This document shows, piece after piece, positions 4,587 to 24,502 of a stretch of 64,000 nucleotides of DNA (position 1 is its first letter; each line of letters starts with the position of its first letter). Origin of the DNA: a bacterium (GTDB lineage: Bacteria; Patescibacteriota; Minisyncoccia; Phycocordibacterales; Phycocordibacteraceae); contig JBBCGK010000001.1 of the NCBI GenBank assembly GCA_037200965.1, forward strand, positions 128,001 through 192,000, given 5' to 3'. The notes beneath the pieces are model-generated. The model was not told the origin of the DNA, did no database searches, and saw only the letters and a program-made list of their open reading frames with translations. Both the position numbers and the translations under genes were made by a program.

Positions 4587-5774
4587 ATGCCTCCGGAAAA
4601 TAACTCCTTCAAAAACATCCCTCTCGAGCTTTATAAACCGGACTGGGATTCTGCGCTCGCGCGGACGATTCTTGAACTTGAGAAGCTTCGCGTTAAAAAA
4701 CTCGGCGGACCTGTGCCTCCTTATATTTTCTTTCAGTTGAAAAATATTTTTCACATGATGGAGAGCCTTGGTTCCGCGCGCATCGAGGGAAACAACACGA
4801 CGCTTGCCGAGTTTGTCGAGAAGATCATCGACCGCACATCGGAAGAAGCCGGGGACGATCAGCTGCGCGAAATATTGAATATTGAACGCGCTATCGATTT
4901 CATCGAAACCGTCATTACCGATCAGATGCCGCTGACACGGGCGCACTTGTCTCAAATCCACCACAGTATCGTAAACACTCTTCCGCCGCCGCCAGGCGGC
5001 GAAGGTTCGCGTACGCCTGGAGTGTTCCGGTCCATGGCGGTAGCGATAAAGAAATCCGGCCTTGTCCCGCCGGAGCCGATACAGGTTCCGGAATATGTGA
5101 GGGAACTGCTCGATTTCGTGAACGCACCGGTCGACAGCCAGAATGACCTTCTGGTAACGGCGCTTGCACATCACCGCCTGGCGTGGATTCATCCTTTCGA
5201 CAACGGGAATGGTCGTACGGTCCGGTTGTTCACGTACGCCTTGCTTATTAAGCAAGGCTTCAGAGTGAAAGTCGGGCGCATTCTGAATCCTACGGCGATT
5301 TTCTGTATGGACCGCGAACGCTATTACGATATGCTCGCGCGGGCGGATTCCGGCACGCGAGAAGGCGCACTTGAGTGGTGCTCGTACGTGCTTGAGGGCT
5401 TACAGCGGGAAGTAGAGAAGATAGATCGCCTGCTCGACCAGGCCTACCTTACCGAAAACTTGCTGCTGCCCGTGCTTTCGTATGCGCGAGAGCGCGAGCA
5501 TATCACCGCCCGCGAATACGAAATCCTCTTTGCCGTGGTCAAAAGCGAGGAGATGAGCGTCAAATCAGTCGATCTGGAGGCTATTATCGGCCAGGAAACG
5601 CCCCTGCAGCGCTCGCGCATCATCAAGCGCCTTAAAGATAAGGGCATGCTGCGCCCGCTTAAGGAGAACGGGCGTATCTATACGATCGGGTTCGTCAATA
5701 ATTACCTGCTGCGCGGCATATTCGAAACACTCACGAAGAACGGCTTTGTTCCCGAATCGCTTACCAGAAAATAA
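4587..5774 (+). CDS. Fic-family protein with N-terminal SxxxEG inhibitory motif and C-terminal wHTH
   Basis: Fic core HPFDNGNGRTVR (N at the usually acidic position) and upstream SARIEG inhibitory helix motif. AT-rich promoter region at 4500-4586. Confidence 0.8.
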   Translation: MPPENNSFKNIPLELYKPDWDSALARTILELEKLRVKKLGGPVPPYIFFQLKNIFHMMESLGSARIEGNNTTLAEFVEKIIDRTSEEAGDDQLREILNIERAIDFIETVITDQMPLTRAHLSQIHHSIVNTLPPPPGGEGSRTPGVFRSMAVAIKKSGLVPPEPIQVPEYVRELLDFVNAPVDSQNDLLVTALAHHRLAWIHPFDNGNGRTVRLFTYALLIKQGFRVKVGRILNPTAIFCMDRERYYDMLARADSGTREGALEWCSYVLEGLQREVEKIDRLLDQAYLTENLLLPVLSYAREREHITAREYEILFAVVKSEEMSVKSVDLEAIIGQETPLQRSRIIKRLKDKGMLRPLKENGRIYTIGFVNNYLLRGIFETLTKNGFVPESLTRK

Positions 5775-13541: not shown

Positions 13542-13731
13542 TTAGCCACGATTCTCCGATTTCTGCAATGCATCTCGTCCTTAATATCCCATATAATTGA
13601 GACCACACCAAAGATACCAGCGCAATATCCGAACTGCCGCTATCCCCACGATCATTGATTTTTCACTTGCGCGCGCTATACTGCAGTCATACATAGCTTC
13701 GTCCGCTTTCCACGGAACGGAGAAATAATGC

Positions 13732-14581
13732 ATGAAAACGAACAACCGAAAGAGGGTTCCCGCCTCGGACGCGCTTATTTCAAAGCTGGTGCAGCTTGAG
13801 ATAGAGATAAGCAAACTGCCCCGCCTTTCCCCGCTTGAGCAGGCGAAACTTAACAACGGACGCGCGATCGAGCATTTGTATTATTCCAGCAAGCTGGAAG
13901 GCAGCAGCCTCAGCGAAAAGAAAATAGAACACGCCATCTATGGCCGACGGATTTCGGCCGCCTAAAGACAAGGATGAGCTCGAAGACCGCGAAGTGCGCG
14001 GCTTCTGGAAAGCTATCGCGCTTTCAAAGAAAATCGGCGAGAGCAGGGAACGCATCACCCTCGATACTATATTGCGCATCCACCGGACCATGTTCGAGTC
14101 CGTAGCCCCGGCAATGGCCGGTCGTTTTCGCACTGCCGGGGAGGATATAAAGAAGTTGGAATGCCTGGAACCTCCTCCGGGGAGGGTTGTACAGGAAAAG
14201 ATGTATGAATTCTGGAAAATCCTAGACGCGCAGTTGTCAGTACTCCCGTCGCATGCCAAAGGGAATACCGTCACGCAGACAAGAAAATGGAGGACCTCCG
14301 TTTTTGACACAGCGACTTGGACCCAGCATCAGGTTGCCGCAATACACCCGTTCTGCGACGGGAACGGCCGCATGTCCCGGCTCCTCACGAATCTTATACT
14401 CAGCAGATACGGGCTCCCTCCGAGCCAAGTTAAATATGAAGGTGAGGATAAGAAAATGTATCTGAGAGCGCTTTGCCAGATTGATCTCTATGGGGACTAT
14501 GAGCCGCTCAAAAAACTCATCGTGCGGAGCGTCTACGAGGAGTACCGAAAAGAACGCATTTTGAGAAGGAGAAACGGTTAG
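13732..14581 (+). pseudogene. Fic-family protein split by a +1 frameshift (77-aa N-terminal SxxxEG piece plus 213-aa Fic core)
   Basis: ORF 13732..13965 carries YSSKLEGSS (SxxxEG); overlapping ORF 13940..14581 in the +1 frame carries HPFCDGNGRMSR. Together they reconstruct a ~290-aa class II-like Fic. Promoter TTGATT-N17-TATACT at ~13657-13690. Confidence 0.55.
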
Positions 14582-14676: not shown

Positions 14677-14910
14677 ATGCTATCCACGTGCGGAAGATGC
14701 GGATCATTTTCATTCGAACGAAAGGGGCTTGAGCGCGAAACCGCGTTCGCGTTCGTTCAATGCGCGCGGTGCGGGGTTCCCGCGGGGCTTGCGCAGGAGC
14801 GGATTGACGGCGCGGACTCCGTAAGCGCGCTTGCCGTCAAACTCGACGGAATTACATCCGCTCTCGCCGCGCTTACGGAAGCCGTGCGGCAGCTTGAACA
14901 ACGAAACTAA
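14677..14910 (+). CDS. small CxxC...CxxC zinc-ribbon protein
   Basis: CGRCGS...CARCG; followed by a perfect hairpin at 14909-14934. Confidence 0.3.
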   Translation: MLSTCGRCGSFSFERKGLERETAFAFVQCARCGVPAGLAQERIDGADSVSALAVKLDGITSALAALTEAVRQLEQRN

Positions 14911-15046
14911 CTCCGCCACTTGCGTGGCGGAGTTAGTCGGCGCTTGGCTACGGTGTATGTAGTAACCGTGGGAGAACTAGGTCCTCACAAGCGCTGATAA
15001 CAAAATAAGCTCTCGGTCCAGAAAATACAAATACGCCGGGACCTGC

Positions 15047-22589: not shown

Positions 22590-22900
22590 TCCGCGGTAGC
22601 TCAATGGTAGAGCAGCTCCCTGTGGCAAACGCAGCTTCCAAAGGAAACTTTGGTCGAAGAACGAGGTGAATTCGGGGAACCCCGAGCGAGAAATCGCGGG
22701 CAATCCCGAGCCAAGTCCCGAATGTCGGGAAAGGTGTAGAGACTATCTCGCAAGAGAGTACTTGGAAAGACGGATTAATCTTTGTCTTTCCCGGGAAGCG
22801 CCTCGCACCCTTCGGGGTGATGATATAGTCCATCCCTGCCAGTAATGGAAGGAGCGATGTAAGGAGTTGGTTCCAGGTTCGAGTCCTGGCCGCGGAGCCA
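22590..22900 (+). tRNA. tRNA-Asn(GUU) interrupted by a group I intron
   Basis: Exon 1 (22590-22623): acceptor TCCGCGG, D-arm GCTC-AATGGTA-GAGC, anticodon stem GCTCC plus CUGU. Exon 2 (22860-22900): UAA-GGAGT, variable TGGTT, T-arm CCAGG-TTCGAGT-CCTGG, acceptor CCGCGGA, discriminator G, CCA. Spliced anticodon loop CUGUUAA gives anticodon GUU. Confidence 0.75.
22624..22859 (+). ncRNA. group I intron (~236 nt) in the tRNA anticodon loop
   Basis: 5' exon ends in U; intron ends in G. An IGS-like GCAG (22631-22634) can pair with exon CUGU, including a U-G wobble. Conserved core R-like GTAGAGACTA (~22735-22745) and S-like GATATAGTCC (~22822-22831). Confidence 0.7.
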
Positions 22901-24502
22901 GATAGGATTAACATCAGCGAAAGCTGGTGTTTTTCCTTTATTGACGGGCTTTTTTGGCGGTTCGAAAGTTCTTTTTTCGTCTGTTTTTTCTCCCATCATC
23001 TGCATGACACGGTCGGAGATGATTTTGAAGGCTTTATGGTATGAAATCTCCACTTTCTTGCCGTTTATCGTCGAGTTCGAAAATAACAGCGACATCAAAA
23101 GCTTCTTGTCGTCGACCATCTCGAGCGTGCTCCGGTTTACGTAAATCTTCCGCGCCTCCTTGGCCATCTGCAAGAAAGTCGATCCCATGTCGAAGTACTT
23201 GAGATTAGCGTTCTTGTGCTTATTGAGGCTATCCATCACTTCTTCCTGCTCGAGCTTGTACTGCGCGTACTTTTTCTGATAGAAGTCCTCGCTTATTTTG
23301 CCGTCGATCTTATCGTCATATATTTTGTCGAGCCGTTGCGTCGCCGTCTGATATCGTCGCTCCAGCTCGCCGGTTGCCTTTTCCCTGAATTCTATTTCCT
23401 CGCTATGGCTTTCCTTGAGTGCTTCCTGAACCCAGGTGAGCATATGCTCGATGGCCTCGTCATGCTTCGAGCTTAACTGCTCGATATTTTCCATCACTTG
23501 CTCGTCGACCTGCTCCTGCCGGACATATTCTTTCTGCGTGCAGTTTTTATAGTGATTGCAGTGGCCATACCAATGGCCTTTCTGTATCTCCCACGTTACG
23601 CGGCCCTTGCACTCCTCGCACCGAAACACGTTTTTGAAAAGCGAGTTGTGCTTGTTGTATCTCGGCGTGCCGTTGCTGTGCATGATGTCTTGGCACCGCA
23701 TGAATAATTCTTTGGTGATAAGCGGCTCATGTCCGCCCTGGGCGACTTTGCCGTTCCAGCGGTTCATGCCGTAGTAGAACGGATCGCCAAGAAGCTGATG
23801 CACGCGCGAGTGACTTACCTTGTTGCCTCCGCGCGAGCGCATGCCGAGCTTGTACATCTCATCGGCCAGTTTCTTGGTCGAGTGTATATTCGTGGCATAG
23901 AGTTCGAACATTCTTTTGACGATCGGTGCCTTATCCGGATCGAGCACGTGGATTTTGTGTCCCTTCTCGCCGACGGTTTTGTAGCCGAGCGGCGGCTTGC
24001 TCGGCAGCCAGCCTTGCGCGAGCTTTTCTTTCTGGCCTTTCTTCACGTTCTCGGAAAGGAGTCGGATGTAGTACTCGGCCGTGGCTACTTTGACGCGCCA
24101 CATAAACCACTCGTGCGACTTGGAGTCCTTGTGGAGCGTACAGCTCTCTTTGACGAGGTGGATGGTGTGCTTTTCATCGGCCAGTATCCACTCGTCGATG
24201 ACCGGCACGTCGGCAAAGTTGCGCGTGAGGCGGTCGGTCGTCTCGACGAAGATCGTGTTGATCTTCGTCTTGGTCACGTATTCGAGCATCTCGTGGAATA
24301 TCTTGCGCTGGATTTTGCCAGCCGCCGATTCCTGGATGGCGAATACCTTGACCATCTCGTAGCCGTTGCGATCGGCATAGTCGTGCAAGAGCTTTTCCTG
24401 CGCCGGAAGCGAGTAACCGGTATCCTCCTGATCCTTGGATGACACGCGGGCGTACCCCACGGCTCGCAATGGTTGATTTTCTTGATTCATTGTCATGGTC
24501 AT
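22775..24502 (-). CDS. large serine recombinase (phage/ICE-type integrase)
   Basis: AVGYARVSSKDQ catalytic Ser region, recombinase domain, Cys-rich zinc-ribbon (CEECKG...CNHYKNC), coiled-coil C-terminus. Track ORF starts at a GTG (24550); an ATG at 24502 is the more likely start. The 3' ~126 nt run antisense through tRNA exon 2 and the intron 3' end. Confidence 0.85.
   Translation of the reverse strand: MTMTMNQENQPLRAVGYARVSSKDQEDTGYSLPAQEKLLHDYADRNGYEMVKVFAIQESAAGKIQRKIFHEMLEYVTKTKINTIFVETTDRLTRNFADVPVIDEWILADEKHTIHLVKESCTLHKDSKSHEWFMWRVKVATAEYYIRLLSENVKKGQKEKLAQGWLPSKPPLGYKTVGEKGHKIHVLDPDKAPIVKRMFELYATNIHSTKKLADEMYKLGMRSRGGNKVSHSRVHQLLGDPFYYGMNRWNGKVAQGGHEPLITKELFMRCQDIMHSNGTPRYNKHNSLFKNVFRCEECKGRVTWEIQKGHWYGHCNHYKNCTQKEYVRQEQVDEQVMENIEQLSSKHDEAIEHMLTWVQEALKESHSEEIEFREKATGELERRYQTATQRLDKIYDDKIDGKISEDFYQKKYAQYKLEQEEVMDSLNKHKNANLKYFDMGSTFLQMAKEARKIYVNRSTLEMVDDKKLLMSLLFSNSTINGKKVEISYHKAFKIISDRVMQMMGEKTDEKRTFEPPKKPVNKGKTPAFADVNPIWLRGQDSNLEPTPYIAPSITGRDGLYHHPEGCEALPGKDKD

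Follow-up and report, generated by a model that had tools for sequence, protein, structure and literature searches.

According to the classification of Engel 2012, which PMC3667792 summarises, a class I system consists of a Fic protein that lacks the inhibitory helix and a small ORF, located upstream, that supplies this helix, and HYPE is termed class II in the same source. Class I modules in which the small upstream ORF partly overlaps the Fic gene are documented (PMC3667792; PMC5651007, with overlaps of 8 and 15 bp); Fti3, for example, has 78 aa and an 8-bp overlap (PMC5651007). The glutamate of the antitoxin can turn a Fic toxin into a deAMPylase (PMC13327609). We found nothing specific in the literature on Fic modules in Patescibacteria. 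The gene pair described here is located in a stretch of 64,000 nucleotides, which was analysed as a whole and is called the window. The pair is like VbhT-VbhA from Bartonella, FicT-FicA from E. coli, Fic-1-AntF from Pseudomonas and Fic3-Fti3 from Campylobacter fetus in that an ORF with an (S/T)xxxE(G/N) motif lies upstream of the Fic gene and overlaps it, and the small ORF is of similar size. As in these modules, the Fic protein has the canonical HxFx(D/E)GNGRxxR but does not itself contain an inhibitory helix. Thus all three sequence features of class I were found, i.e., the canonical signature, a core without the motif, and a separate upstream ORF with the motif. The pair is a conserved two-gene unit with the class I layout, present mainly in genomes labelled Patescibacteria, and its family was previously without annotation. 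We consider it probable that this unit is a bicistronic module, carried mostly by genomes labelled Patescibacteria or CPR, in which a small inhibitory-helix gene and an overlapping stand-alone Fic core are the products of the fission of a class II gene.

The first gene of the pair is an ORF of 77 aa (13732..13965, + strand), which starts with ATG and ends in HLYYSSKLEGSSLSEKKIEHAIYGRRISAA before its stop codon. It appears in the ORF list and as a gene call in the source assemblies, and its product is designated WDN10_00840 in NCBI and named hypothetical protein. The predicted inhibitory motif, S52-S-K-L-E56-G57, corresponds to [ST]xxxE[GN] and is encoded at 13885..13902 (+) inside the conserved block AIEHLYYSSKLEGSSL. 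The second gene in the ORF list (13940..14581, +) also starts with ATG, contains AAIHPFCDGNGRMSRLL, and encodes a core of 213 aa, which is assigned to Fic by Pfam and called a Fic family protein in NCBI. Its catalytic signature HPFCDGNGRMSR (aa 136-147; 14345..14380, +) is a canonical HxFx(D/E)GNGRxxR. The ORF coordinates give an overlap of 26 nt between the two genes (13940..13965, +), and the 213-aa ORF is read in the frame +1 to that of the 77-aa ORF. The ORF list of the window therefore agrees with the preliminary description of this locus, which had reported a 77-aa ORF with SSKLEG overlapping a 213-aa Fic-core ORF by 26 nt in the +1 frame. The ATG of the Fic gene is embedded in the Tyr70-Gly71 codons of the small ORF (T ATG GC), and the TAA stop of the small ORF is embedded in the Pro8-Lys9 codons of the Fic gene (CCT AAA; the common version of the 26-nt overlap has CCT AAR).

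A Shine-Dalgarno-like GGAG (13719..13722, +) was read off the sequence 9 nt 5' of the ATG of the small ORF. No Shine-Dalgarno-like element was found 5' of the Fic ATG in the window locus or in any locus of the family. The small ORF and the Fic core may be translationally coupled, as the genes overlap and the Fic ATG is not preceded by a ribosome-binding site, and the core would then not be made without its partner. A promoter-like site, TTGATT and TATACT with a 16-nt spacer (13655..13682, +), lies 5' of the small ORF as the candidate promoter of the operon. The placement of this site would fit transcription of both genes as a single transcript. The consensus scan gave one site against 1.3 expected by chance, which is weak support for the site.

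The 213-aa product matched the Pfam Fic domain PF02661 with an E-value of 2.4e-14, and H136, P137, F138, N142, G143, R144 and R147 were invariant in 41 family members. At the N-terminus of the core, M1, P8 and E13 were nearly invariant, and the conserved start can be written as MxKxFRRPxxKxELE. A regex scan found no [ST]xxxE[GN] motif in the window core itself or in 65 of the 72 family cores; the matches in the other seven were non-conserved, had the form S/TV(K/H/R)YEG, and were located in a loop near residue 163. The best matches of the core among PDB sequences were human FICD/HYPE (E 1.2e-15), C. elegans FIC-1 and BT_2513, all of which we take to be class II Fic proteins, and no class I chain was present among its PDB sequence matches at E ≤ 0.01. 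The match to FICD begins at around core residues 11-18, and the inhibitory segment of FICD (chain 122-144) is located about 10-15 residues upstream. The canonical active site is shared with these three proteins, and the HLYYSSKLEGSSLSEKKIE block of the small protein aligns with their inhibitory-helix segment. Unlike in the FICD/HYPE group, where the helix and the core belong to one polypeptide, they are encoded by two genes here, and in this respect the pair is not class II. The pair also has no TPR repeats, no membrane anchor, and no C-terminal extension of the kind present in the fused bacterial relatives of 290-297 aa. No significant kinship to the VbhT/FicT/Bep clade was detected; the NCBIfam VbhT model matched with an E-value of 0.013, far below the cut-off. 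The core was further matched by SoFic and PDC-S04, which are PADLOC anti-phage models (E about 1e-18), and one PDC-S04 model represents a short Fic of about 205 positions. SoFic and PDC-S04 are, however, single-gene systems, and the similarity is at the general level of the Fic domain.

The C-terminus of the core (14540-14578) and the C-termini of the family cores (P0002-P0071) form a conserved, strongly basic tail, such as KKEQKLRKRK or RKERILRRRNG. In certain type IV systems, tails with a positive charge at the C-terminus act as secretion signals.

Relatives of the 77-aa protein were obtained by an exhaustive HMMER search; the word-indexed protein search with the same query recovered only the protein itself. 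Using phmmer against 1.84 billion representative proteins, 42 relatives of 64-141 aa were found. All of them align at their C-terminal end, and a fusion to a Fic domain was found in none of the 42. The genes for the small proteins thus make up a conserved family, which comprises at least 42 clusters (50% identity) and has no Pfam or NCBIfam model. The 77-aa protein alone gave no significant match to Pfam, NCBIfam or PDB. The family profile, on the other hand, matched the inhibitory segment of the C. difficile Fic protein 4x2e in PDB weakly (E 0.006), as well as the N-terminus of BT_2513 and FICD chain 122-144, and these matches were weak but specific to the inhibitory segment. In an hhalign comparison between the small-protein family and the fused class II relatives, the same segment was aligned, again weakly (probability 14%, E 0.002). 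In a separate alignment with fused class II relatives, YYSSKLEGSSLSEKKIEH of the small protein stands opposite their FNSNAIENSTLTLKETEH. Nine of 37 members also matched DUF4172 weakly (best E 8e-4). DUF4172 occurs N-terminal to Fic domains. The chance that [ST]xxxE[GN] turns up in 77 aa was estimated at about 5%. S52, E56 and G57 are, however, invariant across 37 homologous small proteins, and because of this invariance and the match of the family profile to the class II inhibitory-helix segment, the motif is not a chance match. The small ORF would provide the inhibitory helix, and its predicted role is antitoxin-like. Unlike class I antitoxins, the small protein has about 45 extra residues at its N-terminus, which correspond to the N-terminal helices of class II proteins.

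A structure was predicted with AlphaFold2 for a conceptual fusion of the two ORFs, using an alignment (A7) of the window fusion, class II relatives and cores. Alignments that included stand-alone small proteins were misaligned by MAFFT, and were not used for the model. The A7 fusion model had a pLDDT of 87 and a pTM of 0.84, as compared with a pLDDT of 39 without the alignment. In a Foldseek comparison, the model matched FICD with a TM of 0.65-0.70 over about 275 columns (E 4e-10), and the TM with BepA was 0.45. The class II resemblance of the core together with the N-terminal helices was thus found both in the sequence match to FICD and in the fold match of the fusion model. Residues 11-40 of the small protein were modelled as helices set against the core (pLDDT about 95). 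The motif segment, residues 48-60, had a pLDDT below 50, and this predicted structure gives no support for a Glu56 docked in the active site. Both its sequence and its fold place the core nearest to class II FICD/HYPE and not to the class I toxins VbhT and FicT, and it is in this that the pair differs from modules with toxins of the VbhT/FicT type. The target of the FicT toxins is GyrB/ParE.

The conceptual fusion of the two ORFs was used as the query of a protein search for close relatives, and 72 close clusters were obtained, i.e., the window's own (100% identity) and 71 others at 46-72% identity. Each of them is a stand-alone core of 158-223 aa, and none of the 72 is a fused form. Fused relatives of 290-302 aa did not occur until identity had fallen abruptly to 25-29%, and an N-terminal inhibitory motif of the SNAIEN type was present in 48 of 48 fused relatives. 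The source names of the close clusters include Giovannonibacteria, Kaiserbacteria and "Patescibacteria group". The preliminary description had proposed a comparison of orthologs, and it was made with 14 other family loci (L003, L006-L010, L086-L090, L166, L168 and L170), drawn from genome and metagenome scans, with at least five close loci each, and from exact-protein look-ups. All 14 have a core and, directly upstream of it, a separate homologous ORF of 64-83 aa. At 13 of these loci the Fic gene is shifted into the +1 frame with respect to the small ORF, and the two overlap by 8, 11, 17, 26, 32 or 50 nt. The remaining locus, L090, is the most divergent (39% identity), and its two genes are in the same frame, set apart by TAA and an 18-nt spacer. 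The tail of the small ORF beyond AI(H/Y)G varies in sequence and length among the family loci.

Selection was assessed by Nei-Gojobori counts. Pairwise dS was saturated in most cases, and therefore only the comparison of pN with pS and the closest pairs were informative. Outside the overlap, pN of the small ORF was 0.14-0.41 and pS was 0.6-1.0 (saturated), and pN was far lower than pS in all locus pairs. For the closest pair, L166 and L168, dN/dS was about 0.07 for the small ORF and the core alike. Because purifying selection acts on both, both frames are real genes.

Two further observations were made at these loci. TATAAT-like boxes are present about 8-20 nt 5' of the small-ORF ATG in L087, L089, L170 and L006, and the occurrence of such boxes near the start codon in several loci of the family suggests short-leader or leaderless transcripts. 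In addition, L006 (CAVWNC010000001.1), a family member with 62% identity and likewise a 26-nt overlap, is on a 2.09-Mb contig labelled Acidobacteriota. Most of the other labelled members bear names of the Patescibacteria type, and horizontal transfer or a problem of labelling could explain this case.

Divergently oriented genes from a region for envelope glycosylation flank the pair in the window; this region contains GT2 and GT4 transferases, a polysaccharide flippase, two PMT_2-type transferases, a PG-binding protein and a CAP-domain protein. These genes are the neighbours of the pair, and no defence context was seen around it within the window. The flanking genes are different in every family locus, and no third gene or shared neighbourhood conserved with the pair was found among these loci. 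From the differing flanks, the pair is regarded as an autonomous two-gene cassette. With the antitoxin-like gene first, the overlap, and unrelated flanks around an autonomous cassette, the pair has the layout of type II toxin-antitoxin systems. The sequence itself shows no signal for degradation or regulation. In L168, a ParE-toxin pair (611-1037, +), consisting of a 62-aa protein and an 83-aa ParE_toxin protein, is located immediately 5' of the small ORF and the Fic gene, and fits a toxin-antitoxin-rich islet.

Just 3' of the pair, the window has an uncalled ORF of 77 aa (14677-14910, +), whose product has two CxxC pairs and is zinc-ribbon-like; no homologue of this ORF follows the Fic gene in the other family loci. 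A strong hairpin is located at 14905-14938, on the strand opposite to this ORF. The window contains another Fic gene (4587-5774, +), which encodes a protein of 395 aa of the single-chain class II type. As had been described, it carries SARIEG and HPFDNGNGR, which are located at aa 63 and aa 202, and in its signature HPFDNGNGRTVR an Asn occupies the position where Asp or Glu is normal. Asn or Gln is likewise found here in a small number of the split-family cores. Elsewhere in the window, a complete group I intron (22590-22901, +) was detected with RF00028 (Rfam match at 22608-22852, 64 bits, E 6e-14). Its 5' flank, GCGGTAGCTCAATGGTAGAGCAG, and its 3' flank, GGTTCGAGTCCTGGCCGCGGAGCCA, resemble tRNA halves, and the locus is probably an intron-interrupted tRNA gene; ARAGORN called no tRNA in the window.

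An overlap of 26 nt in the +1 frame, located exactly between the inhibitory motif and the Fic core, resembles a broken gene. The preliminary description had accordingly listed a sequencing or assembly indel and a recent pseudogene, besides a class I-like arrangement of a small inhibitor and a Fic core. Over 5135 nt including the locus, the window is matched without a difference by a separately assembled Logan contig (run SRR28211700). Another NCBI assembly, GCA_015689235.1, has the same gene calls of 77 and 213 aa with the same spacing. The split is, moreover, common to every relative found, down to 39% identity. An indel is rejected on these results. A recent inactivating frameshift is rejected as well, because both frames are intact and purifying selection maintains them in lineages that have diverged to saturation at synonymous sites. 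Since there is no fused form among the close relatives, it is very unlikely that the correction of one nucleotide would restore a single ORF of 290 aa, and the probability that we give to an artefact or to decay of the gene is negligible. The conserved layout and the lack of any fused close relative favour the class I-like arrangement among the three. The phrase "split by a frameshift", which had been used for this gene, is appropriate in the evolutionary sense, for an old frame-changing event that probably detached an N-terminal inhibitory segment from a class II Fic protein; as a description of the present locus it does not hold, because the locus is a maintained two-gene operon. It is conceivable that programmed +1 ribosomal frameshifting produces one class II Fic protein of about 283 aa from this operon, possibly alongside the separate products. 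The predominant +1 relation of the two frames (13 of the 14 other loci) and the FICD-like fold predicted for the conceptual fusion would agree with this. However, a constant frame relation is also expected from one fission event that was inherited, because later indels within the overlap would destroy one of the genes. No slippery or shift-prone sequence is common to the junctions, the stop of the small ORF varies in position from 8 to 50 nt past the Fic ATG, and L090, with both genes in the same frame, needs no shift at all. The Fic ATG and the first residues of the core are conserved, which is unnecessary for a fusion product. RNA structure at the junction, as a possible stimulator of frameshifting, was not significant (z = -0.82), and neither a fixed, conserved shift site nor a downstream frame without a conserved start, as in prfB-type frameshifting, was found at the junctions. 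From these points, we regard programmed frameshifting as highly unlikely.

A different explanation accepts both genes as separate and regards their products as an obligate split enzyme and not as a toxin-antitoxin pair; in this enzyme a stable heterodimer acts as a single-chain class II Fic protein does, as an auto-inhibited AMPylase/deAMPylase, the fission was neutral, and the core is never alone. The predicted structure is in line with such a heterodimer, because the small protein has more than the inhibitory helix, and its residues 11-40 would form helices on the core as in the FICD fold. The overlap of the genes and the missing Shine-Dalgarno element before the Fic ATG likewise favour strictly coupled synthesis. 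In addition, Pfam and NCBIfam detected no recognisable DNA-binding domain in the small protein, unlike in many type II antitoxins; to our knowledge, however, the FicA and VbhA antitoxins are likewise without DNA-binding domains, which counts against this argument. The behaviour of the module as an autonomous cassette in unrelated neighbourhoods, once beside a ParE toxin pair, is more like that of a toxin-antitoxin system. We therefore judge an obligate split enzyme to be distinctly unlikely.

We return to the class II fission product with an inhibitor in trans. The core is nearest to FICD-like class II proteins and the classical class I toxins are distant, and therefore an old fission of a FICD-like class II gene would be the simplest history of the pair, as judged from the sequences. 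The fission could have been caused by a frame-changing indel in the loop that follows the inhibitory helix. The promoter-proximal small gene would then have retained the N-terminal helices and the inhibitory helix with S52xxxE56G57, which are in a single chain with the core in the class II relatives. The downstream gene would provide the Fic AMP-transferase core as a separate protein, which has a canonical active site and is started at its own conserved ATG. As the architecture is that defined for class I, the small protein is expected to bind the core and to place Glu56. Binding in trans would be similar to that of VbhA to VbhT or FicA to FicT, and by this analogy the small protein probably acts as an inhibitor in trans. 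Glu56 would hold ATP in a non-productive pose, and the core would be an active AMPylase only when it is free of the small protein. A class I mechanism for this pair is suggested by the architecture and the motif, and not by membership in a class I family. The pair may serve in toxin-antitoxin addiction, phage defence or regulation.

The complex of the two proteins may instead remove AMP, by analogy with Glu234 of FICD and with Fic-1-AntF (PMC6826200; PMC13327609). Extended further, this analogy leads to a two-chain FICD switch of independent class I origin, in which the free core AMPylates and Glu56 of the small protein converts it to a deAMPylase. How far the target is modified would then depend on the relative amounts of the small protein and the core. 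In such a switch, it is even conceivable that a host cell receives the core, with its conserved basic tail, but not the small protein, and that the latter confers immunity on the producer. We regard the two-chain switch as possible, but rather unlikely. The bacteria that carry the pair are probably episymbiotic and have small genomes.

For annotation, our results mean that the apparent frameshift between the inhibitory motif and the Fic core should not be "repaired", and the locus should not be called a pseudogene. What is new is an unannotated family with probable descent from FICD-like class II proteins rather than from VbhT/FicT; the kind of system is already well known, and the pair does not overturn the current understanding. 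It indicates that the class I layout, with the inhibitor in trans, can arise from a FICD-like class II enzyme through gene fission. By analogy with the characterised systems, the module would be a compact natural system in which the inhibitory or deAMPylating glutamate is placed on a separate chain, and the pair could help the study of how Fic proteins switch between the addition and the removal of AMP. For the very small genomes of Patescibacteria, the module adds a candidate toxin-antitoxin or defence unit.
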